DNA of 24,000 nucleotides from Wenzhouxiangella sp. 15190 (GCF_003417465.1 NZ_QVMV01000020.1:24098-48097), one strand, 5' to 3'; counted from the stretch's first letter, positions 1 through 21,581 are shown. Notes: generated from the sequence alone by a model not told the origin. Program-made: numbers and translations.

Positions 1-2328
1 ATGCCCAGCGACTCGCTCGATACGCTTCTCGACGCACTTTGCAGCCAGCTTAGTGGCTGTGCCAGTACCCCGGATGCAGTGGAGGCGCCGGCGGCAATCC
101 TCTGGACCGATCCGGAAGGTTTCTGGCGCAGCCTGGTTCCCCAATTGCTGGAAATTTTGCCGGAGTTACTCGTTTTGGGGGAGTATGACCCGGAGCGTCG
201 CACCGGCCCCGCGGTCTGGTTGCGATGTGTGGTCGATGGTGGCATTTCGCTGGATGCGGAAACCGAGGGCCGAACCCCGATCCTCTACTTACCCGGCGTG
301 GGTCGCCAGGACTTGCGCAGGGGTGACGAAGTGCCGTGGAAACTCAGTCCGTTGGTAGAACTGCAGTTTCGGGGGACGATGTGGCTGAACAAGGGCCAAG
401 ACTGGACGGTGACGGCCTTTCTCAGTTCATCCCGTACGCTAGACTTGGAGCTTGGCCGTCATGAAACCACACGCCAAGCTTTGCTGCGCGCCTTGCCAGA
501 GCTTGCCGTAACCTCGATCTCGTCGCTGAAGGGCCGGCGGCTGACGGCCGATGATTTCGATCGCCTGCTGAGCAGCGATACCATTCGCGATCTGCTGCGG
601 TGGATGGGAGAGCCCGAACTGACTCAAACCCGCATGGGTAGGGAAACCTGGGCCGCCTTTTGCAGCCAGGTTCAGGAAAAGTTCGGTCTGGATCCGGCCA
701 CGGACGATGTCACCACGGCTGGGGAATTACTCGGCCGTGCCGATGGGGCCTGGGAATCGGTGTGGGAACGCTTCGCTGAGGCACCCCAGGCCTATAAGGG
801 CATTCCCGAATTGCTGGCGCGCAGTCAGCCCAATGAGCTGCTGCTCGACGGCTCCCGTTGGCCCGGCGTCAATCGGGATCGTGAGGAAGAACTGAGGAAG
901 GAACTGGAGGCACTTGCAGACCTGCCCCATGCCGAGGCCTGTGAGCGCCTGCTGGAGCTCGAGCGCAAACATGGTGGGCGCCGCGGATGGGTGTGGGCTG
1001 CGCTCGATCAGAGCCCGATGGCAAAGGTGCTGACTCCCCTCGCCACGGTCGCCCAATTCTGTCAACAAGTCCCTACCGCCCAGTCGCCCGATGAGTTGGC
1101 AGGCAAGTATGTTGATGGGCTGTGGCAGGCGGACCAGGCAGCTTGGCAGGCCATGGTGATTAGCGGCGTGACTGATGACCAGGTGGTGCATGCGGCACTG
1201 CGCGCCCTGCTGGAACCATGGCTGGAGTCTACTGCCCGGTTGCTACAAGAACTGACCCACGATCATCCGCTGCCTCTGGCCGGCGAGCAGGAATTAGTGG
1301 CTGTGGCGCCCGGAGAATGCCTGGTCTTCGTCGATGGGCTCCGTTTTGATATTGGCATGAGCCTTGTCGACCGATTGCGCGATGAAGGCTGCGAGGCCGA
1401 GGTAAGACATCGTTGGTCGGCGTTGCCATCGGTTACCGCCACCGGCAAGCCCGCGGTGACTCCGGCAGCGAAAGGTATCCGTGGCGCCGAACTCGGCGAG
1501 GACTTTGCGCCGAACTTCGTCGACGGCGAGAAGTCAGTTGTCGCGCGAAATCTGCGGGCCGATCTGGAGACGCGCGGTTACCAGATACTGAGTGACGAGG
1601 ACGCATCGTCACCAGCGGATGATCACACTCGCGGATGGCTGGAAACCGCCAATATCGACAAGTTGGGCCACAAGCTGGAAGCAGACCTGGCTCGACAGCT
1701 TCCCAGTGAACTCGAGCGACTCGCCAATCGCATCCGAAAACTGTTCGATGCCGGCTGGAAAAAGGTACGGATCGTGACCGATCACGGCTGGCTTCTGTTG
1801 CCCGGCGGGCTACCCAAAGCACATCTCCCCAAACACCTGACACAGAGCCGCTGGGCGCGTTGTGCGGCCATATCCGGCGCCTCGGAGCCGGACGCGCCAA
1901 CCGCCCCCTGGTACTGGAACCGGGAAGCCCGATTTGCCTACGCACCTGGCATCAGCTGCTTCAACGCGGCGCCAGCGTATGCACACGGCGGCGTGAGCCT
2001 GCAGGAGTGCGTCATTCCGGATATTGCGGTTACTCGCGACTCGGCAGTCGGTCAGCCGGACGTGCGCCTGGAATCGATCAGCTGGCACGGTTTGCGCTGT
2101 TTCATCGAAGCCGCGAGTGCCGGCGGCAATGTCACGGCCGACTTGCGTTTGGGCCGAGTCAATGGAGTATCTGTGGCTAATACTCCCAAAAAGCTGGACG
2201 AAGAGGGCACTGCAAGCCTGCTGCTGCCGGACGACGAGCACGAGGACGCCGATTTGGTCGTAGTGCTGCTGGATGAAGACGAGCAGGTTCTGGCCCACAA
2301 GCATACAAAGGTAGGACACGCTGGATGA
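1..2328 (+). CDS. pglZ: BREX PglZ (BrxZ) alkaline-phosphatase-superfamily protein, possibly 5'-truncated by the window edge
   Basis: The frame is open from nt 1. PglZ-type motifs VFVDGLRFD and RIVTDHGWLLLPGG are present. The stop overlaps the start of a BrxL-like gene (ATGA at 2325-2328), which is the canonical terminal gene order of type 1 BREX. Confidence 0.85.
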   Translation: MPSDSLDTLLDALCSQLSGCASTPDAVEAPAAILWTDPEGFWRSLVPQLLEILPELLVLGEYDPERRTGPAVWLRCVVDGGISLDAETEGRTPILYLPGVGRQDLRRGDEVPWKLSPLVELQFRGTMWLNKGQDWTVTAFLSSSRTLDLELGRHETTRQALLRALPELAVTSISSLKGRRLTADDFDRLLSSDTIRDLLRWMGEPELTQTRMGRETWAAFCSQVQEKFGLDPATDDVTTAGELLGRADGAWESVWERFAEAPQAYKGIPELLARSQPNELLLDGSRWPGVNRDREEELRKELEALADLPHAEACERLLELERKHGGRRGWVWAALDQSPMAKVLTPLATVAQFCQQVPTAQSPDELAGKYVDGLWQADQAAWQAMVISGVTDDQVVHAALRALLEPWLESTARLLQELTHDHPLPLAGEQELVAVAPGECLVFVDGLRFDIGMSLVDRLRDEGCEAEVRHRWSALPSVTATGKPAVTPAAKGIRGAELGEDFAPNFVDGEKSVVARNLRADLETRGYQILSDEDASSPADDHTRGWLETANIDKLGHKLEADLARQLPSELERLANRIRKLFDAGWKKVRIVTDHGWLLLPGGLPKAHLPKHLTQSRWARCAAISGASEPDAPTAPWYWNREARFAYAPGISCFNAAPAYAHGGVSLQECVIPDIAVTRDSAVGQPDVRLESISWHGLRCFIEAASAGGNVTADLRLGRVNGVSVANTPKKLDEEGTASLLLPDDEHEDADLVVVLLDEDEQVLAHKHTKVGHAG

Positions 2329-4382
2329 ATACCGTCACAGAGATGGACCACCTGGACCGCATCGCGGCGGAAGCCTTCGAAGGCTACCTTGTGCGCAAGG
2401 ACCTGGTACGAAGGTATTCACAGCAGTACCCGGTGCCGACCTACGTGGTCGAGTTCCTGCTGGGACGATACTGCGCCAGTATCGATGATGAAGAAATTGC
2501 GGAAGGCATCTCCGTCGTCGAGAAACAGCTGGATGGCAAGACCGTGCGAACCGGCACGGAGGAGTTGTTCAAATCCAAGGCCAGGGAAGTTGGCTCAGTC
2601 CGCGTGATCGATATCGTTCGCGCCAAACTGGACGCCAAGAATGACTGCTACGTCGCCGAACTACCAAGCCTGGCCCTCAAGGATGTGGAAATTGCCGATT
2701 CACTGGTCCGGGACAACGAGCGGATGCTTACCGACGGCTTCTATGCCGAAGTAACGGTGGAGTATGACCCCTTGGTTGCGCAGGAAAAGAATGGGCGCCC
2801 ATTCAGAATTTCCATGCTGCGCCCTATCCAGATGTCGCAGCCCAAGGTACTCGAGACGCTCGCCAAGGGTCGCGAAAAGTTCACGACCCAGGAGTGGGTC
2901 GATTTCCTGATTCGCTCCGTCGGCCTGGAGCCATCCTCGATGGATGACCGCGCCAAGCAGGTTGTACTGCTCCGAATGGTCCCCTTCGTTGAAAACAACT
3001 ACAACCTTGTGGAGCTCGGCCCTCGCGGAACCGGCAAGAGCCATATCTACCAGCAGATCTCGCCCTACTCACACCTTATTTCCGGCGGGAAGGCGACGGT
3101 CGCCAAGATGTTCGTCAACATGGCCAACGGCCAGCGCGGTCTGGTGTGCCAGTACGACGTGGTCTGTTTCGACGAGGTGGCTGGTATCTCGTTTGACCAG
3201 AAAGACGGCGTCAACATCATGAAAGGCTACATGGCCTCGGGGGAGTTCAGCCGAGGCAAGGAAAGCATCCGAGGGGAAGGCGGCATTGTCATGGTGGGCA
3301 ATTTCGATGTGGACGTTGAGCAGCAACAGCGGATCGGCCATCTGCTCAGCCCTCTGCCGAAGGAAATGCGAGATGACACTGCCTTCCACGATCGAATTCA
3401 CGCTTACGCACCGGGGTGGGATTTCCCCAAGCTCAACCCCAACCAGCACCTCACCAACCATTTCGGGATGGTCAGCGACTTCCTGAGTGAATGCTGGAGC
3501 CAGTCACGGAGCCTCAGTCGGGTCTCTGCCTTGCAGAACCGAGTTTTCTGGGGCGGCGCGCTGAGCGGCCGTGACATCGAGGCCGTTCACAAGACCGTAA
3601 GCGGTCTCATCAAGCTGACCTTCCCCGATCCGGAAATGCCAATACCGGATGAAGAACTGGAATGGATTGTGCGCCTGGCTCTGGAGTCACGCCGGCGCGT
3701 GAAGGAGCAGCAAAAGCGCTGCATGAAGAGCGAGTTCCGAAACACCCACTTCAGCTTCACCTTGGGCGTGGATGGCATAGAGCAGTTCGTTGCCACCCCG
3801 GAGCTTCACAGCGACGAAGCCATTGACGGTGACCCTTTGCCGCCCGGCCAAGTCTGGGCAGTCACACCTGGCGCGGAGGGCGGCCCGGGCCTGTGCCGAA
3901 TCGAAGTCACGATCGGTCCGGGAAGCGGTGTAAAGATCCTGAACCACCCGGTGCCGCCGGCATTCCGGGAAAGCGTTCGAGTTGGGGAGCAGAACCTCTA
4001 TACCCGGGCCGAGGAATTGGTCGGCAACCGCAGCCCCCGCGACCACGAATTCTCGATCCAGCTCCGCTCACTGGACAATGACAAATCCGGCACAGGTCTC
4101 GGAATGGGTGTAGTAGTCGCCCTGGCCGGCGCATTGCTCGAACGAAACTCCCGCGGCGCCACACTAGTCGTCGGCTCATTGAATCTGGGCGGTTCAGTCG
4201 AAATGCTCACCAACCCGGTTTCCATCGCAGAACTGGCCGTCGAGAAGCAGGCCAACACCCTGCTCATGCCAGTTTCGGCCCGGCGGGCACTCAATGACCT
4301 GCCGGACGAGATGTGGACGAAGATCAAGATCGAATTCTATGCGGACGCGGCAGATGCTGTTTTCAAGGCGCTAGAGGACTAG
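2325..4382 (+). CDS. brxL: BREX Lon-like ATPase/protease BrxL
   Basis: 685 aa, the typical BrxL size. It has a Walker A motif GPRGTGKSH and a Walker B-like VVCFDEV, plus a C-terminal Lon-protease-like region (GLGMGVVVALAGALL). It lies directly after pglZ with start/stop overlap. Confidence 0.85.
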   Translation: MNTVTEMDHLDRIAAEAFEGYLVRKDLVRRYSQQYPVPTYVVEFLLGRYCASIDDEEIAEGISVVEKQLDGKTVRTGTEELFKSKAREVGSVRVIDIVRAKLDAKNDCYVAELPSLALKDVEIADSLVRDNERMLTDGFYAEVTVEYDPLVAQEKNGRPFRISMLRPIQMSQPKVLETLAKGREKFTTQEWVDFLIRSVGLEPSSMDDRAKQVVLLRMVPFVENNYNLVELGPRGTGKSHIYQQISPYSHLISGGKATVAKMFVNMANGQRGLVCQYDVVCFDEVAGISFDQKDGVNIMKGYMASGEFSRGKESIRGEGGIVMVGNFDVDVEQQQRIGHLLSPLPKEMRDDTAFHDRIHAYAPGWDFPKLNPNQHLTNHFGMVSDFLSECWSQSRSLSRVSALQNRVFWGGALSGRDIEAVHKTVSGLIKLTFPDPEMPIPDEELEWIVRLALESRRRVKEQQKRCMKSEFRNTHFSFTLGVDGIEQFVATPELHSDEAIDGDPLPPGQVWAVTPGAEGGPGLCRIEVTIGPGSGVKILNHPVPPAFRESVRVGEQNLYTRAEELVGNRSPRDHEFSIQLRSLDNDKSGTGLGMGVVVALAGALLERNSRGATLVVGSLNLGGSVEMLTNPVSIAELAVEKQANTLLMPVSARRALNDLPDEMWTKIKIEFYADAADAVFKALED

Positions 4383-4415
4383 CGCCCGAGGGTATCTCTC
4401 AGTCAGGAGGGCGCT

Positions 4416-5201
4416 ATGGTCTTTTCACGGGAGTTTATCCAGAATCTTCCTGAAGACGAATTTTCTGCTCGCGAGAAACGACACCTAGAACGTAAGTTCT
4501 TTCCCCCGCCGTCAGAACCTCCTTGGCAGAAAGACTTGCGGGCAGGGTGGGAGGAGAACAAGCGCTGGCATGAAATTCTGGAAGCCCCACCCGAGCACGC
4601 AGAGCGAGAGCCGTACCGGATCACCCCAGCAGAACTGCTGCGAAGGGCAGAGGCCCGTCCACCAAAGAAAACCGGAAACACGGTTTCGTCCTTTACCGGT
4701 TGGATTTATTCGCTTTACCAGTCTCGTGCGCGTTCCTCGAGCCTTGAACAGGGTAAGCAGCTGGAGCGCCGACTCGCACAGCTAGATCAGCCCAAACCTC
4801 CAAAAGGAGTCTGGGATCTCCTGTATGTAGGCTACGGGCCCGAGGCACAGTCATCAAAGTCAATTTCCTCGCTTCTGGTTGAAGGAAAGTCGCTTTGGGG
4901 AAAGCCAGATATCGTCTTCAGAGAAAGGGCCACAGGGAGGATTCTGATCGTAGAGCTGAAGTGGTCGCGGGCCACACTGCCATCAGACTGTTGGCCGAAC
5001 GTAAGGGCTCAGCTCTGGGCTTACAGCAAAATCGACGATTTCTCAGATTCTCCAGAGATAATCTTGGCTTGTGAAGCTTGGGGAATGGGGGTAGATGGGC
5101 TTAAACCTCGGGGCTGGTGGCGCTGGCACGCCCGGCGCGAAAGGTGGGAAAAGTATCATGAGGCTCTGTTTTCGTACTTCGGGGGCGAAACGGTATCGTA
5201 A
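4416..5201 (+). CDS. Hypothetical protein with a RecB/Cas4-like PD-(D/E)xK nuclease motif set
   Basis: An AGGAGG Shine-Dalgarno lies 5-6 nt before ATG 4416. The motifs are GKPD165IVF ... ILIVE180LK182 ... AQ199LWAY203, i.e. D...ExK...QxxxY (nt 4908-5024). The gene is on the same strand as brxL and starts 34 nt downstream of it. Confidence 0.7.
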   Translation: MVFSREFIQNLPEDEFSAREKRHLERKFFPPPSEPPWQKDLRAGWEENKRWHEILEAPPEHAEREPYRITPAELLRRAEARPPKKTGNTVSSFTGWIYSLYQSRARSSSLEQGKQLERRLAQLDQPKPPKGVWDLLYVGYGPEAQSSKSISSLLVEGKSLWGKPDIVFRERATGRILIVELKWSRATLPSDCWPNVRAQLWAYSKIDDFSDSPEIILACEAWGMGVDGLKPRGWWRWHARRERWEKYHEALFSYFGGETVS

Positions 5202-5980: not shown

Positions 5981-6355
5981 TTATCCGGTGGTTTCCCGAC
6001 TTCTAAACGCAAGTTTGGCAGGCCGACCACCAAGTCCCTTTCCTGGCACTCCGGTGCGATGGCGCCACGGCCCATTCAGTCGGGGCCGCCAGTCGGGCCA
6101 TTTCCCCAGCGCCGCCAGTACAGCGCGGATAGTCCTCCAATGATCGTATCGTGTCGCTGGCGCTAAATCCCGGCATGCTACCTCCAAGTACCACCGAACA
6201 TGCTTCAGCTTCCAGTGATAGGGGTGCGAGCGGCCGGCACCCCAGCGGGCGCCGATCGCCTCAGAAATTTGTCGAGCGCGAGAGATGTGACCTCTGACGG
6301 CACCAGAGGAACCCGGCTGGGACCGGCGAAGAATCTGTTCAATGCTTGTCCTCAT
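5981..6355 (-). CDS. Hypothetical protein co-transcribed with the upstream tyrosine recombinase
   Basis: 124-aa ORF whose ATG overlaps the stop of the 6352-7314 gene (ATGA-type overlap at 6352-6355). It is basic and W/R-rich. Function was not recognised. Confidence 0.5.
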   Translation of the reverse strand: MRTSIEQILRRSQPGSSGAVRGHISRARQISEAIGARWGAGRSHPYHWKLKHVRWYLEVACRDLAPATRYDHWRTIRAVLAALGKWPDWRPRLNGPWRHRTGVPGKGLGGRPAKLAFRSRETTG

Positions 6356-7314
6356 TTGACGCCTCCTATGTAATTGCCAACGACATCGACACGGACGTGG
6401 CCCAATTCCTGCGAAATCTCCGCCCGAGCGGTCATGTCTAGGTCTCGAGGGGCTATTCGGCTTCCAGTCACTACAGGAGCCTCATGTCCGGTCAGCTGCG
6501 TATAGCGCTCGCATGCATATGCGGCTCGACAATCGTGGTAGCCGGCAATCCCAGCCGCTTTGAGTTCCTGGCGCCCCTCTCGGAGCTCGCCATCGACAAA
6601 TTTGCGATAGGATTCGCCGGCAGCGAGGAGATTTCTGCTGCCTTCCGGGCTCGTGTCCAGTGCCGTTCGGAGTGCCTTATAGGCCTCCTGGGAGACCGGC
6701 ACCAGCCGATCTGCGGTCCGGCCGCCTTTGGCTCCCTCCTGGATGTTCACTACACCCGTCTCTCGGGCTTCCCTTTCCAGTCGCGGAAGGTCGGCCAACG
6801 TCGCCTCGCGCTCTCTCAGACCTAGCTCTCGAGCCAATTCGACCACCGAGGCAGCGCGGTCACGGCCAGCAGCGCGCATGCTGGCGGCAGCTTTCGCCGC
6901 TTGGGCTCGATCGAGGCTGCCGGGTCTATCCTTACGGACATTGCTGCGAGATCCGCAGTAGTCCGAAGGGCTGACCTTGATCCCGCTGTCCCCTGTCATT
7001 GCGCGCAGGACAACCTGCGCACTGGAGATCAGGTTCTGTCCGTAGGCGACAGCTAGGTTCTTGGAAGACACCTGCTGGCCCACGTATTCGGAGAAATCCC
7101 GCAGAAGTCTCTCCGGATCGTTTCGCGCGAGGTCGCGGATTCCCTGCTCCCTCGCCCATTCCGAAAACTGGCCGAATCGACTTGCATGTGTGGCAACGGT
7201 CGCGAAATGACCGTCGCCGTAGTAGTCAATCAGGGCCTCTCGACCCGCATACGCCAGATCTCGGCCGTACCCGAAATTGCGGCTCGACCCGGCCGCGCTG
7301 TATTTCCCAGCCAT
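6352..7314 (-). CDS. Tyrosine recombinase (phage-integrase-fold protein)
   Basis: The catalytic signature appears in order: GLREREATL (Arg), KGGRTADRLVPV (Lys), YHDCRAAYA (HxxR), LGHVRVDVVGNYIG (His...Tyr). I place the start at ATG 7314, which has a GGAGG SD 6 nt upstream, rather than at the ORF-track start 7404. Confidence 0.7.
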   Translation of the reverse strand: MAGKYSAAGSSRNFGYGRDLAYAGREALIDYYGDGHFATVATHASRFGQFSEWAREQGIRDLARNDPERLLRDFSEYVGQQVSSKNLAVAYGQNLISSAQVVLRAMTGDSGIKVSPSDYCGSRSNVRKDRPGSLDRAQAAKAAASMRAAGRDRAASVVELARELGLREREATLADLPRLEREARETGVVNIQEGAKGGRTADRLVPVSQEAYKALRTALDTSPEGSRNLLAAGESYRKFVDGELREGRQELKAAGIAGYHDCRAAYACERYTQLTGHEAPVVTGSRIAPRDLDMTARAEISQELGHVRVDVVGNYIGGVK

Positions 7315-7756
7315 TGCAGGCCTCCAGAACATTGAGAGTGGACCTGTGGCGTAGAAGGTCACTACGCCGCGACATCGATCGTGCAGCCAGGGCAAGCACC
7401 TCATTCTCCCGCCAGGAGTTGGTAAGTGATAACTGGGCTTGCGGTGCCAGCGACCGATGAGGTGCCATGATGCCGCCCATGGCTGCGTCGACAGGTGTGT
7501 ACTGGGGACCTGTCAGCCCCGTTGTGACGCTTCGTCCATCTCCACGACTGTGTCTCCGGTGCTCCGGATGGCGGGGGTCGCGTGCAGTGCAGTGGCCGGC
7601 ACTGCGTGGATGGGTGCGTATTCCGCTTCGCATATCGGCGTTGCGGGTTGCTTTGACAGTGGCGAGGGGCGGCTCGGAGGGAGCAGATGTCTGCCGAGAT
7701 GCCAGGCTCGGGGGCATTCTGATGCCACATTCTGCTGTTGAGCGCGCCGCAACTGG

Positions 7757-7798
7757 CAGCAGGTGACAGCACCTGCTGTCACCTGCTGCCCCCTGCTG
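7757..7798. repeat. 13-bp inverted repeat overlapping three tandem 10-bp repeats (iteron-like)
   Basis: CAGCAGGTGACAG (7757-7769) is the reverse complement of CTGTCACCTGCTG (7776-7788). ACCTGCTGTC / ACCTGCTGCC / CCCTGCTGTC occupy 7771-7780, 7781-7790 and 7791-7800, i.e. CCTGCTG occurs every 10 bp. Confidence 0.7.
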
Positions 7799-7816
7799 TC
7801 GACGCAGGGCCGTTGA

Positions 7817-7842
7817 AACAGGGCCTCCAGGCCCTGTTTTCT
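7817..7842 (+). terminator. Terminator-like hairpin in non-coding DNA
   Basis: AACAGGGCC (7817-7825) / GGCCCTGTT (7830-7838) with a 4-nt loop, followed by TTCT. The T-tail is present only on the + strand. Confidence 0.35.
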
Positions 7843-7878
7843 CGCCACACATTGCGCCGCATCCATGCGGCACAAGTG

Positions 7879-7903
7879 GTTTTCGCGCGCAGTTTTCGCG
7901 CGC
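7879..7903. repeat. Tandem 12-mer GTTTTCGCGCGC x2
   Basis: Exact copies lie at 7879-7890 and 7892-7903, separated by one A. Confidence 0.7.
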
Positions 7904-7906
7904 GGC

Positions 7907-7993
7907 GAATGCCCGGAAACATTGAGTCTCCGGGCATTCGCGTGCGACACGTGTCGCCCGTCTCTTTGCACTCGCGCGCAAAAGAGACGGGCG
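7907..7993. repeat. Cluster of long perfect inverted repeats (hairpins/palindrome)
   Basis: An 11-bp stem, GAATGCCCGGA (7907-7917) / TCCGGGCATTC (7929-7939). A 14-bp perfect palindrome, GCGACACGTGTCGC (7944-7957). A 13-bp stem, CGCCCGTCTCTTT (7955-7967) / AAAGAGACGGGCG (7981-7993). Confidence 0.75.
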
Positions 7994-8493
7994 AACACCA
8001 CGGGGCGTCCTGCACCTGCAGTCCGCCCAAGTGTCGCTTTTGGGGTATTGACCGAGTCAATACGCGACCGTGCCGAAGAACAAGCTTCAGGCCTAGGCCA
8101 TTTGAAAACCCCGTGCGGGGCATGGGAAGGCTCGCGAGTAGCGAGCATGGAAAGACCAGCCGAGGCCGGTCAATTCGAAGGTCAGCAACTAATCAGATGA
8201 TCGCCGCAGAGATTTCTGATCGGCGAGGTGGTTGCTTCCCGGAAAGTTACGGATTCGCAAGTTATACCAATCCTGTGCGCCTCGGGCCCGTCGTTTTTTG
8301 GTTGGCCCTATCGCGTGGGCGAGATTTACGCAGCTCCCGCCTAGCTGATCACCACATTGCCAAGAAGCCCCCTCTCTGTCAAGTAGCCGCACTCCGGTTG
8401 AAAATCAGCCAACGGGGTGGAGGTCCTGATTGTTCCCCGTGAGCATATTTGGACACCAGTCCAGGACCACAAACCCACGGAGTAGCTCCGTGC

Positions 8494-9020
8494 GCGCCAC
8501 TGCATCCGATTGGGCAAGTCTGCCCGCAGAGCTGCAGGGATGAGGGAATCGAGAGCGAATGAAGTTGGAGCACGACGCCTGGCGGGCCTTGCGGATCGAC
8601 ATTCGTAGCCGAAGGTGGAGATTCATTCGCACCGAGCACCCAAGATGGAGTACATCACGGAACAAGACATGGGCCTTGTCGAAAGACTGCGAATCTCCGA
8701 CCAGCTCGCAAGCCAGATCGTCCAGCATGGTCAACTACACGCGGAGCCGCGCGTTCTCAGCCGTGTTTTGGACAGCGACGGATCAACCGTGCACTCCGTG
8801 CTCAAGAACTGGATTTTCGCTCTCATCGAGGCCGAGCCGGAGCGGTTTCAGAACCTGGAGGAAGCGGAGCGGTTTGCTACACGCGCCCTGACAGAGAGCA
8901 TGCTCGAGGCTTTTCCAGGCGCCTGCGAACTGTAAGTCTGCATGCGTGGGTGCTCAGAATTACCCGCTCTTGGCCCGGCGTCCGTCACTCTCCCGCCTTG
9001 GTTGCCCCGAAGGAAAGGTC
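8494..9020 (+). repeat. Copy A of a roughly 0.5 kb diverged direct repeat (module containing a 96-aa ORF)
   Basis: By hand alignment it matches 16033-16560. The match covers about 150 bp of conserved leader, the ORF, and about 85 bp downstream. The right-hand end of the homology is approximate. Confidence 0.7.
8645..8935 (+). CDS. Conserved hypothetical 96-aa protein (paralog A)
   Basis: 77 of 96 residues are identical to the product of 16185-16475 by my hand alignment. Differences are mostly conservative, and both proteins end in EAFPGACEL. I chose the start at the ATG conserved in both copies. Confidence 0.6.
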   Translation: MEYITEQDMGLVERLRISDQLASQIVQHGQLHAEPRVLSRVLDSDGSTVHSVLKNWIFALIEAEPERFQNLEEAERFATRALTESMLEAFPGACEL

Positions 9021-9284
9021 CGTGGCATATTGCCTACTAGAAACGGCTGGAGCGCGCCAACACGTAGGCGCACTCCCCGAAGTAGGAGGTTTCAGGACTA
9101 TATGAACTATCCGCGCATAGCAACATGCCCGAAAATCTAGAAATCGCGTCAACTAATAGACTAGTGATCAGGAGACCAAAAACTAGAGATTTAGGGAGCG
9201 GAATCAAAGTTTCTCTCACTAAAATCCATTTCTCAATCCAAGTTTTCAGATAGAACCCGATCGACCAGTAGGGGGATCTTGCCG

Positions 9285-9989
9285 ATGAATTTGAATGATG
9301 CGCGTAAAAGTATCTCTGAGCATGTAAAAGACCTGATTGACCAGTGCCCTCATTGCGGCGCGAAGTCTCATATCGAGGCCCAGTGGAATGAATGCCATAA
9401 GTACCGCAACGGCGATGCCGAGTTTTACGTGATATTCAGATGTCGGCCATGTAGAAAATTGATATTAAAGACACTCTACTTTGAGCAAAATCGGTATAGC
9501 CAACAAGAAAATCTAACGATGAGAGGGTGGAAAGACACTTTCCCCATGATTTTAGACGAGCATCTAGGTCCTGATGAAAAAGAGCATGTCCCTACTGAGG
9601 TGCTGGAGGACTATGAGGAGGCGTTGCGCTGCAAGTCCGTTGGCGCGGATAAAGCAAGTTGTGCAATGTTCCGGCGTGCGCTTCAGTCAGCTCTAGTCCT
9701 ATTAGGCGCAAAAGCGAAAGAAAACCTAATTAGCCAGATTGATTCGCTTTATAGCTTGCCGGCGGATATCAGGGACTGGTCGCACCAAATACGAATATTT
9801 GGCAATTGGGGAGCCCACCCTGATCAGGATCAATTGAAGAACGTAGATCGAGATGATGTCCTAGAAGTTCACGACTTTTTCTCCAAATTTTTAGTTTACA
9901 CATTCATCATGCCTGCAAAGGTGCGAGCATCGAGGGAACGTCGCGAAGCAAGAACACAACCTGAAAATGATTCAGGCAGTGAAGCGTAG
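9285..9989 (+). CDS. Zn-ribbon + DUF4145-like domain protein
   Basis: Two CxxC pairs are present (CPHC from 9345, CRPC from 9441). The C-terminal half matches the DUF4145 pattern as I remember it (YEEALRC...ASCAMFRRALQSAL...IRDWSHQIRIFGNWGAHPD). ATG 9285 has a GGGGGA SD-like run 8 nt upstream. Confidence 0.75.
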   Translation: MNLNDARKSISEHVKDLIDQCPHCGAKSHIEAQWNECHKYRNGDAEFYVIFRCRPCRKLILKTLYFEQNRYSQQENLTMRGWKDTFPMILDEHLGPDEKEHVPTEVLEDYEEALRCKSVGADKASCAMFRRALQSALVLLGAKAKENLISQIDSLYSLPADIRDWSHQIRIFGNWGAHPDQDQLKNVDRDDVLEVHDFFSKFLVYTFIMPAKVRASRERREARTQPENDSGSEA

Positions 9990-10095
9990 AAACTGATTCG
10001 CGCTTTAACAACAGCGCTATCTCCGACCGACATTCCATGTGGCGCTCCACGGCCGCGTTTATGTTACTCACTAGGGCTCGCAATTCAAAATATGG

Positions 10096-10113
10096 CACAT
10101 ATTAAGATATGTG
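10096..10113. promoter_or_regulatory. Operator-like inverted repeat in an AT-rich putative promoter
   Basis: CACATAT (10096-10102) TAAG ATATGTG (10107-10113). It is embedded in TTCAAAATATGGCACATATTAAGATATGTG, just upstream of the small ORF/ATPase pair. Confidence 0.3.
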
Positions 10114-10138
10114 TATCTACAACGATGGTTCGATTGTT

Positions 10139-10351
10139 ATGCCAGAAACAAATGAACAGCTGATCGAGAAGACAATTTCGCTTCTAGAAGGTGATGACAA
10201 GACAGATTCCTCATTACTAAAGGTGCTGTCCGCACACATTGTAAGGCTCAACCCCAAAAGCACTGCGGTGAGCGACGCCGTGCGGGAAATTGAAGAGATT
10301 GCCGAGAAGAGATCTGAGGAGCCTGAAGATGGCCATGCCGATCACGATTGA
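10139..10351 (+). CDS. Small, strongly acidic hypothetical protein (about 70 aa)
   Basis: ORF 10109-10351, with an internal ATG at 10139 (MPETNEQ...). Its 3' end overlaps the ATPase start and contains the ATPase SD. The start is uncertain. Confidence 0.4.
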   Translation: MPETNEQLIEKTISLLEGDDKTDSSLLKVLSAHIVRLNPKSTAVSDAVREIEEIAEKRSEEPEDGHADHD

Positions 10352-12830
10352 GGCCCTCAGGCTTGAAGGCTTCCGAGCATACCTTCAGCCGCAAACCATA
10401 ACTCTTTGCCGCGGAAAGGCATCGCTCAGCCTTGCTGTGTTCGCACCAAATGCCAAAGGCAAGTCAAGCCTAGTGGACGCCTTCGAGTACTATTTTTCTG
10501 AAGACGCGACGCTGGCCCGACTAGGTAGGCGTCAAGCACAGACTCATGCAGGCCCCCTTGCGATGGAGCATGTCCATGCGGAGAAATACGGGGTCACACC
10601 GGGTGTCCATCTCTGGTTCAAGCAAGGTGGTGACAAGTTCGACGAAGCTCGGCATGTTTCTAAATCCGTAAAAACAGCTCCTCCCTTACCGGATTCAGCC
10701 AAGCGCGTTCTATCTAATACAAAGCTTCCTTTCATTATTCGGGGATACGAGCTACGAGGATTCGTTGAAAAGTATACGCCGGAAGACCGGTACAAAGATG
10801 TTGCCTCCTGGTTTGCGCTTGATCCGCTTTTACGCATTCAGAAGAATCTTCGCGCCCTGCGGCGGGACGTTAAAAAGATAGCCGAGTCGAAGACGGAGGA
10901 AAATGAACGACTCCGGGATCTAAAACAGATCACAAATAATGCTATCACTGCCTGGGATGAGGCCAAAATCTGCAGTTGGTTTAATACTTTGCTTGCCCAC
11001 TTAGATGAAGGCCTGTCGCTGGCCGAGCTTTCTGAGGCAGATACCGGTTACCAGGAACTGGTCAACCGAAAAGCCGCCGAGGATGAACGGCTTGGGCTTG
11101 GCGTGCTCAAGCAGCTGTCCGCTCGCATTGAAGGGCTCTTCTTGGCTCCGGTAAAAGAAGGGGAAAAACCAAAAGGTAATATTTTCGCCTTTGAAAGCGC
11201 CGTCTCAGGTTACACGACCGCTGTCGCGCGCGAATCCGAGGAACGATCTAAGGCGAGCCAGGCAGTCTTTAATGAATTGTGGGTGTCTGCTAAGAAAGTA
11301 TTCGAAAACGAGGAAACCAACTTTCAGAGCTGTCCTGTCTGTGACACGGCACTCACGTCTAGCCCCCACGGCTCACGAGAGAAAATCCTTTCCGGCCTGG
11401 AAGCCAAGCTTGCTGACTTGGGCGCGTACCGTGCCGCTGAAATGGATCTGCAAAAGGCTACCAAGGTCCTCCAAGATGCTTTGCGCGACGTAAAAGTCAA
11501 ACTTGAAAGTGCGATTTCTAGCTTGAAGGATGCGGGCTATGAGGGCAAAGCGAAACGGATCGCTGCCTATCTAGATAAACTTAAGTCCTGGAAGGTTGGA
11601 GACAAAGCGCCACCCTCTGAGAAGGTGGTGACGGAACTGACTGTTTTGCTTACGTCAGTTTCCCGGGAACAAGAGCGTATCAAGAAGCGACAAGGGGAAC
11701 ACACATACGCCAGCACCCTCAAGGTCGCCGACGAGCTCATTCGAATCAAATCCCACCTGGAGAGGATTCAGCGGGTCAAGGCCGAGCTAGAGACACTTCA
11801 GCTGAATCTCAGCAGGCAAGCCCTGGTCATTAACAAAGCGATCGTTGAGCACGTCCAAGACCTCATCGGAACGCTCCAGAGGAGTGTGGATGACCTTTAC
11901 AAGGACATTCAGGGCGGTGGTGGGAACGCACCGCCCATCCGTTTCGAGCTTCCGGGAGAAGATGATCTCAATCAGCAACGCATTCAACTTCTCATCGACT
12001 TCTCAGAGAACCGGAAGGGTGTGGTCCCGAGCGGCTATCTTAGCGATTCCCAGATCCATACACTGGCATTGGCGTTACGTTTGTCCGCTATTCGCATGTT
12101 CAACGATGGGGCCCGCATTATCGTTCTCGACGATGTGGTGACGTCGTATGATGCAGATCACCGCAAGAACATTGCGGCGGTCTTGGCAAAGCACTTTAAT
12201 GACTTCCAAATTATTCTCGCCACTCACGATGAACAGTTTTTTAACCTTCTACAGGACCACCTTTCCACGGCAAAATGGTTGTTCCGCAGAATCACAAAGG
12301 TCGAACCCAACTTTGGCCCCCAATTTCACGACCACCGGACATCGGATGAAGCCATTCAGGCCAAGTTTGATGCAAATGAAAGTGCCGCAAGCCTTATGCG
12401 GCAGGCTGAAGAGGAGTGGTTGCTCGACATTTGCAGGGGCTTCGGCGTGAAGGTCGTCATTCGACCCGTCCATCGGCCTTACCAGTTTGAGCGTGGCGAA
12501 ATGGCAGCTGCCCTCGCCAGCTTCTTGAAGGGCGTCGGCATCCTTCCGCCAGAAGTCCCTGGTATGTCCAATACTTTTATCAGTAGTCTTCAAAAAGGTG
12601 TAGTTGAAAATTTCGCCAGTCATTTCTCCGACAATCCCTACAAGAATGCGTCAATCGGCGATGAAATGGCGAGGTGGGAGGAGTTTCAGTATTTCCGCGA
12701 CCAGTTTGCCTGTCCCTCCTGTGGCAAGCGCCGGTTCAAGAGGCCACCGAGTCTTAGTAAGCCGGTGTGTACCAAGTGCGAAACGCCCTTTGCGTTCACG
12801 CAATCCCAAAAGGCCGAGAGAAGTGGGTAA
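10329..12830 (+). CDS. Rad50/SbcC/SMC-like ABC ATPase with a central zinc hook and a C-terminal Zn-ribbon extension
   Basis: GAGGAG lies 7 nt before ATG 10329. The N-terminus, IEALRLEGFRAY, is typical of SMC-type heads. Motifs: Walker A APNAKGKS (aa 39-46), long helical/charged middle region, CPVC (aa 335-338, nt 11331-11342), signature-like LSDSQ (aa 571-575), Walker B IIVLDD (aa 597-602), LATHD (H633), and CPSC...CTKC (nt 12711-12779). Confidence 0.85.
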   Translation: MAMPITIEALRLEGFRAYLQPQTITLCRGKASLSLAVFAPNAKGKSSLVDAFEYYFSEDATLARLGRRQAQTHAGPLAMEHVHAEKYGVTPGVHLWFKQGGDKFDEARHVSKSVKTAPPLPDSAKRVLSNTKLPFIIRGYELRGFVEKYTPEDRYKDVASWFALDPLLRIQKNLRALRRDVKKIAESKTEENERLRDLKQITNNAITAWDEAKICSWFNTLLAHLDEGLSLAELSEADTGYQELVNRKAAEDERLGLGVLKQLSARIEGLFLAPVKEGEKPKGNIFAFESAVSGYTTAVARESEERSKASQAVFNELWVSAKKVFENEETNFQSCPVCDTALTSSPHGSREKILSGLEAKLADLGAYRAAEMDLQKATKVLQDALRDVKVKLESAISSLKDAGYEGKAKRIAAYLDKLKSWKVGDKAPPSEKVVTELTVLLTSVSREQERIKKRQGEHTYASTLKVADELIRIKSHLERIQRVKAELETLQLNLSRQALVINKAIVEHVQDLIGTLQRSVDDLYKDIQGGGGNAPPIRFELPGEDDLNQQRIQLLIDFSENRKGVVPSGYLSDSQIHTLALALRLSAIRMFNDGARIIVLDDVVTSYDADHRKNIAAVLAKHFNDFQIILATHDEQFFNLLQDHLSTAKWLFRRITKVEPNFGPQFHDHRTSDEAIQAKFDANESAASLMRQAEEEWLLDICRGFGVKVVIRPVHRPYQFERGEMAAALASFLKGVGILPPEVPGMSNTFISSLQKGVVENFASHFSDNPYKNASIGDEMARWEEFQYFRDQFACPSCGKRRFKRPPSLSKPVCTKCETPFAFTQSQKAERSG

Positions 12831-13071
12831 TGAAAGGATCAATACACTATGTAAGCGGTAATTGCCCTAACGAGGCGCTCCACTGGGTTCTGCCCCGACA
12901 GCACGGTGGCTTTCGGTAAGACCTTTTCCTCTGCCACTGGCGCGGGCTTAGATCGCACCTGAATGGAAGAAAAAGTCTTAACAAGAGTGTCCGCCAGGTC
13001 GGGGTGGAACCCGTCTCGGGACCTTGATCTAAGTCTCTCGACTTGTTTAGAGTTAGGGGAGCGGTTCCGGG

Positions 13072-13491
13072 ATGAGAGAAATGCCTTCGACGCCACGGAG
13101 TAATAAGCAGCGCTTCTATGGGCTCGTTACGAGCAAGGGAAAGAAGAAGGCTGTTTCGGGTACGAAATCAGAGCAACTACTGCTCGCGGGTGCAAGAATG
13201 CGAGTATTCCACTCGGAGAAAGATCTGTATGAGTGGCTAAGAAAACCGTTGATTCTCCCCGAGACAACGCACTCGTCGCCAGACTGGAAGACCTGCCCAA
13301 CCTGCGGAGTGCATGTTAAAAAGGTTAACTATAAGAAGCACCAACAGCGCGTCCATAAGAATGCGGAGAAGGACCGGAGTCAAGCGAAGCGTGATCCGTA
13401 TGGCCCGGAATACGATGACCCTCCTGATTTTCTAGACCTGCCAAATGTCGTTTCCGGGGGCGGCTTCGGCGTTGGCAAAAAGAAGAAATAG
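13072..13491 (+). CDS. Small basic protein with a C2H2-like zinc-finger motif
   Basis: CPTCGVHVKKVNYKKHQQRVH (Cx2Cx11Hx4H). It has lysine-rich termini. The start codon is uncertain. Confidence 0.45.
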   Translation: MREMPSTPRSNKQRFYGLVTSKGKKKAVSGTKSEQLLLAGARMRVFHSEKDLYEWLRKPLILPETTHSSPDWKTCPTCGVHVKKVNYKKHQQRVHKNAEKDRSQAKRDPYGPEYDDPPDFLDLPNVVSGGGFGVGKKKK

Positions 13492-13513
13492 AGAGAGAGG
13501 CCGGCCAAAACGG

Positions 13514-13540
13514 GGGCTATCTTATAGCCCGCGCTTTTCT
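13514..13540 (+). terminator. Possible rho-independent terminator
   Basis: GGGCTAT (13514-13520) CTT ATAGCCC (13524-13530), followed by GCGCTTTTCT. Confidence 0.4.
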
Positions 13541-13676
13541 CCACTAGTCAGCGGGGCGCTAGCTAGGGCGATTGCAGCGATTTGATTTATAGAGTAGGGT
13601 CCACGATGGATAGGCGATACCTAGTCCGTCTTGCCCATTGCGGCTTAGGAAAGTCCTATCCGGACTGGAGGGGTTT

Positions 13677-14474
13677 ATGAAGTTATTTCTTGCTTTACTT
13701 GTCTTTGTTCTTGCTGCATGCGCCGGGTCGCCCGAGATTCAAGATTCGTTTCCAAGCTATAGCGGAGAGGTGCTCCCTATGCGGACAGAAATTGATCCTA
13801 CTCTATCTCCAAATTCACGATTAGTGAAGACGGGCGGAAAGTTTCAGATGAGAGAGGGTGGCCACTTCGAGACCCTGGAGTGGGAGGTGGAGTATAGAGA
13901 GACGCTGGAGCGTGGCCTTGACGGAAATATTTCTGCTACGGCAGATATTCTCACATACCTGATAAATGGCCAAGGCTTTGAATCGAATGAATCGATTATA
14001 TCGACCGCATGGGACGCGTCGGAGGATGGTGTCCCCTCTAATGTGCAGTTGGACATTACTGAGCTGCCGAACGAATATCGCCAGCAGTGGTTTATTGAAG
14101 CATTCACTGAAGAAGCGAGAGGCTTGGCGCGGACCTTGGAGCTACCTAATGGATCCGTAAAAACTGGTTCTACGTGGGTGCCACCAGATTTTTCGATTCC
14201 GGATGAAATCAAAGAATTGCAAGATTTTGAGATTGAAAGCGAAGTGAAAGGGTGGAGCTTCGTGAACGGTGAAAGAGTCATTGTGGTGGAAACCTTTTTA
14301 GATGCACCTCCCGGGTCGGCAAACCATAATCTCTCCACTATGGGGCGGGGGTATACGCTTTATGATCCAATTTCCTTTGTGCCTGTAGAGTCCCGTTTTT
14401 CGGCAATTATGAATTTTACAAGGAATGGCGAACGTGTTACGGCGAGGGCGGATCAATATCGTACGTCGAGGTAG
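13677..14474 (+). CDS. Putative lipoprotein
   Basis: A GGAGG SD lies 5 nt before ATG 13677. The signal peptide is MKLFLALLVFVLAAC with a lipobox L-A-A-C. No other motif was recognised. Confidence 0.7.
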   Translation: MKLFLALLVFVLAACAGSPEIQDSFPSYSGEVLPMRTEIDPTLSPNSRLVKTGGKFQMREGGHFETLEWEVEYRETLERGLDGNISATADILTYLINGQGFESNESIISTAWDASEDGVPSNVQLDITELPNEYRQQWFIEAFTEEARGLARTLELPNGSVKTGSTWVPPDFSIPDEIKELQDFEIESEVKGWSFVNGERVIVVETFLDAPPGSANHNLSTMGRGYTLYDPISFVPVESRFSAIMNFTRNGERVTARADQYRTSR

Positions 14475-19446: not shown

Positions 19447-20751
19447 TTAAGATTTAGTTTTGTGTTCGCTATAGCTCGTCATCAGGTTGCGGAGTGTCGT
19501 TAGTGCTGAGAGCTTTTCCGCGTAGTAGTCGTGGCGGTTATAGTGGCGCCATTGAACACCTGAGAGACCATGGCTCTGAAGCTGGGCGAGCGTGTCGGAG
19601 TGCAGTCCCGCGGCTGCGAGCCGAGTTTCCACGGTTCGGCGCAAATCCCCCAGGGAAAACGGGGCCGCCAGTTCTCCTTCGGTTAGCATCCGCGCAGATA
19701 ATTTCCTAATTAGCTTTCCGACCCGACTTGGGTCGGCCGGGCTCTCCCCGTGAGTAAACGTAAACAGGTACGGTCCCATGTTCGCGCCGCGCATTTCGTC
19801 GATCGCCATTTGCGCCTCGAGCAGAACTGGGACCATGTGCCGTCGGGGCTGTTGTCGCTTTCCTTTCCGGTCCCACAGAGTCAACTGGCCGTCGGCTATG
19901 TCGTCGATCGTCGCCCGGCGAAGTTGCGCCAATCTCTGCCCTCCTAGGAGCAAGTGGGCCCGTAGTAGCGGCCCAGCGGGTTCGTCCGGCAAGCTGATTC
20001 GTCGCCACAGCGCCTGTAGCTCGCCCAGGCTCAGGTGGCGCTCACGTGGTTTGCTCGCTCCCTCGATGGTTGCAACGTCGGCTGCCGGATTGTGGTCGAT
20101 GCCAAACTGGCGGTATCCGCTGGCTTGGGCGCTGGTCCGTGAGCGGAGGGCCAGTGCGTAGGCTCGACGAATATAGGCTCTCACCTTTCGAGCAGTCGTC
20201 AGCTTTCCCGATGTGGTCAGCGGCTCCAGGATTTCCAGACAGTCATCGAGAGACAGTTCGGCGGCGGGTTTCTGCCAGATCGCGATGTGGGGAGCAATGT
20301 GGTTTTCCACTGTGTTTTCTACATCGTCAGCACTGGCCTTGCCGGCTGACTGCAGCTCTCTGACGTAAGTTTCCATCAGAGCGCCGAAGGTTCTGGCTCG
20401 GGAGTCTTCGTCTGGCTCAGAGTTGTTGCGCCGAGCTGCCTCCTGGCGCTCTCTCTCCAGTACTTCGGCAAGATCCTTGCCTTCGGCGTGCAACTCGAGA
20501 TAGCGGGACGAGAGCTGACGTGCGACTTTCCGGGCCTCGGCCAGGCTCAACGGGAGGCCCTCCGAGTCGTACATTGGAAGTGGAATTCTCCGCTGGGGTG
20601 TTCCATAGCGGTAGTAGAAGCGTGGCCCCTTCTTTGTGCCCCTGGCTTGAAGTGCGCCCGCGCCGTAGCCCAATGGCTCGTTGAGTGCCCGGCCTGGCTT
20701 CAGGCTCTCCAGCTGGCGAACGGTAATGGTGGTAGCTTGTCTTCTGGGCAT
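19447..20751 (-). CDS. P4-type tyrosine integrase
   Basis: The N-terminal arm-binding-like region is TVRQLESLKPG...RFYYRY. The core has LLLGGQRLAQLRR (Arg box), GDLRRTVETRL (xxxR box) and SHGLSGVQWRHYNRHDYYAEK (His...Tyr). It is adjacent to the tRNA remnant. Confidence 0.9.
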   Translation of the reverse strand: MPRRQATTITVRQLESLKPGRALNEPLGYGAGALQARGTKKGPRFYYRYGTPQRRIPLPMYDSEGLPLSLAEARKVARQLSSRYLELHAEGKDLAEVLERERQEAARRNNSEPDEDSRARTFGALMETYVRELQSAGKASADDVENTVENHIAPHIAIWQKPAAELSLDDCLEILEPLTTSGKLTTARKVRAYIRRAYALALRSRTSAQASGYRQFGIDHNPAADVATIEGASKPRERHLSLGELQALWRRISLPDEPAGPLLRAHLLLGGQRLAQLRRATIDDIADGQLTLWDRKGKRQQPRRHMVPVLLEAQMAIDEMRGANMGPYLFTFTHGESPADPSRVGKLIRKLSARMLTEGELAAPFSLGDLRRTVETRLAAAGLHSDTLAQLQSHGLSGVQWRHYNRHDYYAEKLSALTTLRNLMTSYSEHKTKS

Positions 20752-20956: not shown

Positions 20957-21029
20957 CCTCCCTTCCCCTGAAGCTTCCTTCACGGTCCAGGCGCTACGTT
21001 TCGCAGCACTCGTGGAACGGAGCATCGCA

Positions 21030-21581
21030 ATGAGACATTTATTCGGCACGATCGCGCTGCTGGCGCTGTCGGGTTGCGCCATGATGCGCGGCGGGCCGCC
21101 GCTGGAGACGGTCGAGCGGGTCGATCTCGAACGCTACATGGGCGAGTGGTACGTGATCGCCAATATTCCGTATTTCGGCGAGCGCGGCAATGTGGCCGGC
21201 CGGGCGATCTATCGCATGCGTGACGACGGTCGCATCGATGATATCTATCGGTACCGGGACGCCAGCTTTGATGCCCCTGTGGAAGAAATGACCGGTGTGG
21301 CCTGGGTGGTCGACACCGAGACCAACGCCGAGTGGAAAGTCCAGTTCTATTGGCCGATCCGCTTCGGTTATTACATCATCGCGCTCGACGACGATTATCA
21401 ATGGACCGTGGTGGGGCATCCTTCGCGGGAGTATGCCTGGATCATGGCGCGCGAGCGCGAGCTTTCCGATGAGCGCTACGCAGCTTTGCTCTGTATGCTC
21501 GAGGCGCGCGGATTCGATGCCTCCCTTCTCGAGAAGGTGCCGCAACGCCCGGAGCAGGTCGGAAAGCCGGGGTTCCAGTGA
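21030..21581 (+). CDS. blc: Outer-membrane lipocalin lipoprotein Blc
   Basis: Start at ATG 21030 (GGAG 7 nt upstream). Lipobox LALSGC. Lipocalin motifs YMGEWYVIANIPYFGE and YIIALDDDYQWTVVGHPSREYAWIMAR are co-linear with E. coli Blc as I recall it. Confidence 0.85.
   Translation: MRHLFGTIALLALSGCAMMRGGPPLETVERVDLERYMGEWYVIANIPYFGERGNVAGRAIYRMRDDGRIDDIYRYRDASFDAPVEEMTGVAWVVDTETNAEWKVQFYWPIRFGYYIIALDDDYQWTVVGHPSREYAWIMARERELSDERYAALLCMLEARGFDASLLEKVPQRPEQVGKPGFQ

Follow-up and report, generated by a model that had tools for sequence, protein, structure and literature searches.

In the Lamassu systems (LmuA–LmuC–LmuB; also ABC-3C or DdmABC), DNA ends or structures are sensed, LmuC precedes LmuB in the way that the C-terminal domain of SbcD precedes SbcC, and certain clades no longer have LmuC or the effector domain (PMC12663957). 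The LmuA effectors are highly variable and include proteases (Lamassu literature). RloC and PrrC are anticodon nucleases with the triad Arg-X3-Glu-X36-52-His, in which a Ser often stands before the His (Davidov and Kaufmann, PMC2610378); in the RloC of Geobacillus, a protein of 804 amino acids (aa), these residues are R692, E696 and H737, and the protein also carries a CxxC zinc hook (PMC2610378). The DUF4145 domain has been assigned to the HEPN superfamily, with fusions to zinc ribbons reported (PMC3710099), and one preprint describes PD-T7-4, built from HEPN and zinc-finger domains, among proteins already known to act in defence (bioRxiv 10.1101/2025.01.08.631726). Here we compare with these systems three genes in a 24,000-nucleotide (nt) stretch of Wenzhouxiangella sp. 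15190 (GCF_003417465.1 NZ_QVMV01000020.1:24098-48097; hereafter the window), with positions counted from its first letter:

9285-9989, plus strand: gene 1 (module A), 234 aa, zinc ribbon plus DUF4145 (HEPN), PD-T7-4-like
10109-10351, plus strand: gene 2 (module B), small acidic helical protein, 80 aa, isoelectric point (pI) 4.5
10329-12830, plus strand: gene 3 (module B), 833-aa SMC/Rad50-like ABC ATPase with a coiled-coil/zinc-hook insert and a C-terminal domain

An earlier note, made from the sequence of the window, had read these genes as a single three-gene cassette with a DUF4145 effector. All three same-strand open reading frames (ORFs) exist with the motifs it described, and no named system among the PADLOC models fits them as a whole set, in keeping with its view that they fit none of the ATPase-based systems it could recognise; the single cassette dissolved once related loci were compared. 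The best explanation, which we regard as an even call, is that two independent defence-type modules are stacked in one island, and that the second of them would comprise an RloC/Lamassu-like ATPase with a fused effector and a small partner.

Related loci and the conserved gene pair

To compare gene neighbourhoods, we used 16 other ATPase loci, 22-83% identical to gene 3, collected via exact-protein look-ups and plasmid matches; a genome-collection scan with a single ATPase protein recovered one locus (L001). Eleven belong to the close family (44-83% identity: L001, L002, L004, L006-L010, L019, L020 and L022) and come from metagenomes, a Nitrosomonadaceae metagenome-assembled genome (MAG), a Nitriliruptoraceae MAG and Bradyrhizobium plasmids. 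The other five are distant plasmid relatives (22-25% identity: L021 and L024-L027). A DUF4145 gene was found in none of the 16 by tblastn or by a profile hidden Markov model of the gene 1 family run over six-frame ORFs, not even in L022, the ATPase of which is 83% identical to gene 3. Conversely, gene 1 homologues of about 60% identity stand alone in Saccharophagus degradans and two other lineages (loci L011-L018), with no ATPase beside them, and more distant full-length relatives of gene 1 occur singly in temperate phages that infect Escherichia, Klebsiella, Burkholderia, Gordonia and Streptococcus. The ATPase family had no match in the phage genome collection. Genes 1 and 3 thus occur together nowhere else among the loci examined, an outcome that the earlier note had itself named as refuting its proposal. 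Because DUF4145 is missing from all 16 ATPase loci, gene 1 homologues lack the ATPase, and the GC content at third codon positions (GC3) differs between gene 1 (0.48) and gene 3 (0.58), we conclude from this comparison that genes 1 and 3 are two independent modules and not one unit.

Judged by the same loci, genes 2 and 3 are the unit that is conserved. Of the 16 other loci, 15 have a small ORF whose last 4-23 nt overlap the start of the ATPase gene, and 13 further small-protein matches lie on contigs equal in size to contigs with ATPase matches. In every close-family locus a gene 2 homologue of 66-86 aa (31-71% identity) sits directly 5' of the ATPase, and in the distant loci divergent small acidic ORFs occupy the same position. 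Across loci the small partner measures 53-86 aa and is always acidic (pI 4.0-4.8). It belongs to a family of 53 members, which carry neither a Pfam domain nor a name. In the window the two genes are coupled, as had been noticed earlier, through these elements:

10316-10321, plus strand: GAGGAG Shine-Dalgarno sequence of gene 3, within the gene 2 coding sequence
10329-10351, plus strand: overlap of genes 2 and 3, 23 nt

The acidity of gene 2 was likewise recognised correctly, whereas the length first given for it, about 70 aa, corresponds to an alternative start at 10139. The start is most likely 10109, giving 80 aa, because the N terminus then aligns with the L008 and L009 homologues and one gene caller gives 80 aa.

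The exception among the 16 is L025, from plasmid pTi6.2 of Rhizobium rhododendri, where a distant relative of 915 aa (1810-4557) has no separate small ORF. This ATPase bears an N-terminal extension of about 97 aa joined through an Ala/Pro/Thr-rich linker, and its C-terminal ribbon cysteines are missing; the extension may be the small partner fused to the ATPase.

The ATPase family is patchy and has spread horizontally: its members in a gammaproteobacterium and in an actinobacterial MAG are 65% identical. Mobile contexts of the gene 2/3 pairs include Tn7-like transposition genes, integrases and plasmids. Their defence neighbours are diverse: AbiLi/AbiLii, a type III methyltransferase with a ResIII helicase, an Mrr nuclease, PDC-S73/nSTAND3, TIR proteins, a caspase, HamC/DUF3223, AbiE, MmeI, a UvrD-PD-(D/E)XK cluster and a Prok-E2/JAB/ThiF cluster. 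No neighbour recurs across the loci examined. The HamC/DUF3223 gene ('DCL family'; PADLOC HamC 2.6e-54) of L019, on Bradyrhizobium plasmid p195_2 (8484-9203), starts at the ATPase stop codon and is missing from the sister locus L020. The SbcD genes of L019 and L020 are part of separate SbcCD operons with their own SbcC. In L006 (8721-13158) a cluster of Prok-E2, Prok-JAB, ThiF and Prok_Ub genes beside the pair resembles a ubiquitin-like conjugation defence system.

For annotation of defence islands, this locus illustrates that same-strand adjacency is not evidence of an operon. What remains as a candidate is a two-gene unit found in at least 146 sequence clusters, in Proteobacteria, an actinobacterial MAG and plasmids.

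Properties of the ATPase and of the PD-T7-4-like protein

The description of gene 3 as an 833-aa SMC-type ABC ATPase with a zinc hook agrees with our searches (Pfam SMC_N, 3e-13; CPVC at residues 335-338); Rad50_zn_hook matched only weakly (0.011). Its ATPase features are as follows:

10443-10466, plus strand: Walker A APNAKGKS, from residue 39, with K45; N41, G44 and K45 invariant in 35 homologues
11331-11342, plus strand: zinc hook CPVC (C335, C338), at the tip of a coiled coil whose arms each have about 160-180 residues
12039-12230, plus strand: C-lobe ABC motifs, namely signature LSDSQ (571-575), Walker B IIVLDD (597-602), D-loop SYD and H-loop THD (632-634)

The P-loop lysine is therefore K45 and not K44, the residue named before. 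In the same 35 homologues C335, P336 and C338 of the zinc hook are invariant, as are D573, S574, Q575, D602, S606, Y607 and D608, and H633 is kept in at least 90%. The family has at least 228 homologues. Asp602 occupies the usual position of the catalytic Glu in Walker B; PrrC-type proteins likewise read DD there.

Among PADLOC profiles, gene 3 scored best against LmuB (PDLC03859, 3.7e-27; PDLC03865, 2.7e-21), followed by mad3 (1e-14) and by PrrC (9e-6), the last over residues 595-652 only, from Walker B to the H-loop. The Lamassu likeness that had been proposed for the three genes consequently holds for the ATPase; gene 1 has no match to the PADLOC LmuA models, and gene 2 has none to LmuC. 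A full-length AlphaFold2 model (predicted local distance difference test (pLDDT) score 82) consists of an ABC head, two long antiparallel helices (165-326 and 350-528) that flank the CPVC loop, and an extra C-terminal domain. Foldseek against the PDB placed Rad50 first (7zr1, 4.5e-12), with LmuB chains 9hqx_B (6.4e-9) and 9uxh_F (1.1e-8) ranking 14th and 18th, and a sequence search of the PDB returned only Rad50, SMC and RecF heads.

We also compared the family with Pfam AAA_13, which we take to be the family that holds PrrC and RloC. In L021 the distant relative scored 47.9 bits, above the cut-off of 36, and the close-family ATPase of L019 scored 34.1 bits; sub-threshold matches were seen in 9 of 35 close relatives of gene 3, and none of ten divergent representatives carrying the C-terminal domain reached the threshold. 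By these scores L021, which has the small partner and the same C-terminal domain, is a bridge from the gene 3 family to AAA_13.

A family-specific insertion follows the Walker A helix of gene 3 at residues 62-90 (RLGRRQAQTHAGPLAMEHVHA). R64, L65, G66, G75 and H81 are invariant, and residues 66-73 were modelled with a pLDDT below 50. The insertion could be a contact for DNA ends or for a partner.

The part of gene 3 that follows the ATPase head is specific to the family:

12330-12827, plus strand: C-terminal domain, residues about 668-833, with a helical part and a terminal Cys4 zinc ribbon
12399-12623, plus strand: candidate catalytic constellation, R691-x3-E695 at 12399-12413 and N761-x2-S764-H765 at 12609-12623
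12711-12779, plus strand: terminal Cys4 ribbon, C795, C798, C814 and C817

An exhaustive profile search with this domain over 1.84 billion representatives found 146 cluster representatives. In 61 near full-length clusters the domain lies at the C terminus of proteins of about 770-860 aa, and the shorter matches look like fragments. Conservation in 62 full-length representatives was highest at the putative catalytic residues (R691 in 61, E695 in 59, N761 in 60, S764 in 53 and H765 in 61), with G777-D778 and the four ribbon cysteines also among the best-conserved positions. R691, E695, N761 and H765 are kept even in the relatives of 22-25% identity, two of which have Val in place of S764. In architecture, size and motif, with its candidate residues R-x3-E ... 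N-x2-S-H, gene 3 is a striking echo of RloC, except in the Glu-to-His spacing.

We considered whether the domain could be a copy of the DUF4145/HEPN domain of gene 1 and rejected this, as hhalign aligned only the zinc ribbons, at a probability of 7%.

One ATPase homologue departs from this layout. P0013, in L010 (338-3460), is 73% identical to gene 3 over residues 1-793 and has a total length of 1040 aa, with a Trypsin_2 domain in place of the terminal zinc ribbon; a TIR_2 gene follows at 3516-4703. P0013 comes from a single Logan contig, on which a fusion artefact is possible, and it weakly suggests that the C terminus is an attachment site for effectors.

In gene 1, the two CxxC pairs and the DUF4145 block seen in the earlier reading were both recovered:

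9345-9452, plus strand: N-terminal Cys4 zinc ribbon, CPHC at residues 21-24 and CRPC at residues 53-56
9615-9881, plus strand: DUF4145/HEPN domain, Pfam DUF4145 2.4e-17, residues 111-199
9786-9824, plus strand: motif QIRIFGNWGAHPD, residue 168, inside the DUF4145/HEPN domain

Across 27 homologues C21, C24, C53 and C56 are invariant, as are R170, G173, N174 and H178. The family comprises at least 188 homologues of about 230-240 aa. Gene 1 matched phrog_1305 across its full length (3.6e-32) and the PADLOC model of PD-T7-4 (PDLC04109) at 1.6e-11 and 42 bits, with residues 20-186 aligned to positions 15-162 of 211. Because this match spans both the ribbon and the HEPN domain, and because the homologues stand alone, we file gene 1 by sequence as a distant member of the PD-T7-4-like single-gene kind, for which the joining of HEPN and zinc finger is already known from the validated PD-T7-4 system. 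The zinc ribbon of gene 1 may sense or bind nucleic acid or a phage cue, upon which the HEPN domains (R170, N174, H178) of two copies would pair to form an RNase and so arrest the infected cell.

A possible immune mechanism and the alternatives

If module B is an ATPase with a fused effector, gene 3 would dimerise via its zinc hook. As in Rad50, LmuB and RloC, its heads would engage DNA in an ATP-dependent manner and recognise ends of foreign DNA or replication structures. The signal would pass to the fused C-terminal domain, where the R-x3-E ... N-x2-S-H residues and the Cys4 ribbon may form an RloC/PrrC-like (HEPN-type) RNase or a nucleic-acid-binding effector; the predicted outcome is abortive infection via cleavage of RNA or tRNA. 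The gene 2 protein, made in coupling with the ATPase, would be its obligate stoichiometric partner. It could serve as an inhibitor or antitoxin that silences the ATPase-effector, or as an LmuC-like adaptor, given that it stands ahead of the ATPase as LmuC does ahead of LmuB and the C-terminal domain of SbcD ahead of SbcC.

A bolder form of this proposal, which we hold to be possible yet doubtful, is that genes 2 and 3 constitute an unnamed, horizontally mobile two-gene immune system, in which an RloC-like zinc-hook ATPase has a C-terminal nuclease of a new type and is restrained or aimed by its small partner, a DNA-mimic-like antitoxin or a minimal LmuC analogue; in evolutionary terms the system would stand between Lamassu and RloC/PrrC. 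If active, the pair would join the two immune uses of SMC-like ATPases, with a separate effector in Lamassu and a fused anticodon nuclease in RloC, and, if the proposal is true, it would add a small acidic regulator to SMC-like ATPase immunity.

Several observations weigh against these readings. Gene 3 scored 13.1 bits on AAA_13, against the cut-off of 36, and its Walker B has Asp for Glu, so that ATP turnover may be slow or atypical. The C-terminal domain matched only generic zinc ribbons in Pfam, no sequence in the PDB, and no fold in Foldseek searches of the PDB and BFVD, and the catalytic-loop region was modelled at low confidence. The distance from Glu to His is 65-69 residues in the family (69 in gene 3) instead of the 36-52 of RloC, with which gene 3 was compared by published residues and architecture (PMC2610378). 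Gene 2 matched no PADLOC LmuC model and has no similarity to SbcD, and its proposed role derives solely from synteny, charge and coupling. For module A, the PD-T7-4 model is covered over only 148 of its 211 positions.

The first alternative is that genes 2 and 3 make up a complex that acts as a sensor or manipulates DNA but lacks an enzymatic effector. The helical part and zinc ribbon of the C-terminal domain would bind DNA or regulate the heads, and killing or exclusion would result either from DNA clamping that depends on ATP or from the recruitment of effectors in trans, the variable neighbours included. The lack of any nuclease fold or profile match in the C-terminal domain, where only a zinc ribbon is recognisable, is as this explanation would have it, as are the trypsin domain added in P0013 and the Lamassu clade reported to be without an effector domain (PMC12663957). 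The downstream neighbours can be read either way: they vary and are often effector-like (nSTAND3/PDC-S73, TIR, and HamC overlapping the ATPase stop), but none is conserved across loci. Moreover, the best-conserved residues of the domain are polar and catalytic in type (R, E, N, S, H and D) instead of forming a basic DNA-binding patch. We consider such an arrangement unlikely.

Another alternative is that the pair is not immune at all and is instead a toxin–antitoxin-like addiction module, or a DNA-repair or plasmid-maintenance factor, carried on mobile elements. A small acidic gene overlapping the start of a larger one is the classic antitoxin–toxin layout, several copies reside on plasmids beside rep/par or conjugation genes, and the NCBI GO label on relatives is double-strand break repair. 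Set against this, the majority of loci lie in chromosomal islands full of recognised defence genes, the family has the patchy, horizontally spread distribution that is typical of defence genes, and no SbcD/Mre11 partner is conserved with the ATPase. On this evidence a non-immune role seems improbable.

The original idea of one Lamassu type II-like cassette, in which gene 1 would be an LmuA-like effector and genes 2 and 3 would correspond to LmuC and LmuB, is very unlikely. It would account for the common strand, the order effector–small protein–SMC and the LmuB match, and would draw on the variability of Lamassu effectors and the position of LmuC before LmuB, but it is opposed by the lack of gene 1 in all the other ATPase loci, by solitary gene 1 homologues that are no longer than gene 1 and have no added docking domain, by the lack of LmuA and LmuC matches, and by the 119-nt gap and GC3 difference that set gene 1 apart from gene 2.

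The island and comparison with described systems

The setting described earlier, an AT-richer block in a defence island near BREX genes and integrases, agrees with our measurements. The GC content of the three-gene block is 0.46-0.54, as against 0.57-0.69 in its flanks, and the surrounding features are these:

1-2328: PglZ, part of the BREX locus
2325-4382: BrxL, ending 4.9 kb upstream of gene 1
6352-7404: Integrase_1 gene, upstream of the three-gene block
9990-10108: spacer between module A and module B, 119 nt, with one weak terminator-like hairpin at 10037-10058
19447-20751, minus strand: phage-type integrase, phrog_1 match 8e-29

No BREX genes were found near the other ATPase loci; BREX is close only in the window, where its proximity is incidental island stacking. 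As had been stated before, no TOPRIM, HNH, SbcD or methyltransferase partner adjoins genes 1-3 in the window. A scan of 8900-13700 for promoters and terminators gave no enrichment over shuffled sequence, so that transcription units could not be defined from it; terminator-like sites numbered 8 against 5.9 expected, which is evidence neither way.

Directly 3' of brxL, a 261-aa ORF (4416-5201, plus strand) has weak PD-(D/E)XK/Cas4-like matches in PADLOC (DruK 0.0022, Cas4 0.0045) and might serve the BREX locus as an accessory nuclease. The stretch at about 7400-9000, which separates the AT-rich block from the integrase-like gene, has a GC content of 0.58-0.64 and overlapping ORFs in all frames, none with any family match, and may be non-coding or decayed DNA at an island junction. 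Just 3' of the ATPase lies a 139-aa ORF (13072-13491, plus strand) with a C2H2-like finger, CxxC...HxxxH, and a tail rich in Gly and Lys; no family matches it, and L022, the closest relative, has a different downstream gene. The phage-type integrase is located where the GC content climbs back to about 0.6-0.69 and is adjoined by a Blc lipocalin gene (21012-21581, plus strand) and mnmC (21584-23443, minus strand). The region around it is probably the right border of the island. The window contains no tRNA genes.

Of the described systems, PD-T7-4, a single-gene anti-phage protein of the E. coli pangenome, is closest to module A: gene 1, too, unites a zinc finger and a HEPN domain in a free-standing protein of about 230 aa. 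At 42 bits over model positions 15-162 of 211, the similarity is a distant one, and the defence activity of gene 1 is a prediction. Ishtar has an N-terminal HEPN domain and a beta-rich C-terminal domain, a layout unlike that of gene 1.

Gene 3 shares with Rad50–Mre11 and SbcCD the design of a zinc-hook coiled-coil ABC ATPase, and Rad50 is its top structural match. It differs in having no Mre11/SbcD phosphoesterase partner in the window, a much shorter coiled coil and an added C-terminal domain.

Its resemblance to Lamassu lies in the ATPase, for which LmuB is the best profile and is among the structural neighbours, with Rad50 scoring better; in the short coiled coils with a zinc hook; in the defence-island location of both; and in a small gene directly 5' of the SMC-like gene, in the position of LmuC, in 16 of 17 loci including the window, with no LmuC profile match. 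By contrast, no separate LmuA effector gene is conserved beside the gene 3 family, and the small acidic partner (66-86 aa) matches no LmuC model. LmuB (about 650 aa) also lacks a domain of about 170 aa that gene 3 carries, and the Walker B of gene 3 is DD in place of the E-to-Q variants described for LmuB.

Like RloC, gene 3 is a protein of about 800 aa in which an ABC head is split by a CxxC zinc-hook coiled coil and followed by a C-terminal domain, and R-x3-E falls near the same residue numbers in both (R691/E695 in gene 3, R692/E696 in Geobacillus RloC). The segment from Walker B to the H-loop (595-652) matches PADLOC PrrC, and a distant relative passes AAA_13. Unlike RloC, gene 3 has a sub-threshold AAA_13 score (13 bits against 36), a C-terminal domain that no profile recognises, a Glu-to-His spacing of 69 instead of 36-52, an extra terminal Cys4 ribbon and, encoded upstream, a small acidic and presumably obligate partner of a kind not described for RloC.

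The gene 2/3 pair as a set is unmatched by the PADLOC models tested, and the literature searched holds no name for it, although an earlier description is possible. Because it has no LmuA, no LmuC match and a sub-threshold AAA_13 score, we assign it to neither RloC nor Lamassu. By analogy, genes 2 and 3 look like a hybrid of the two, with the fused effector and zinc hook of RloC and the LmuB-like ATPase and small upstream partner of Lamassu.

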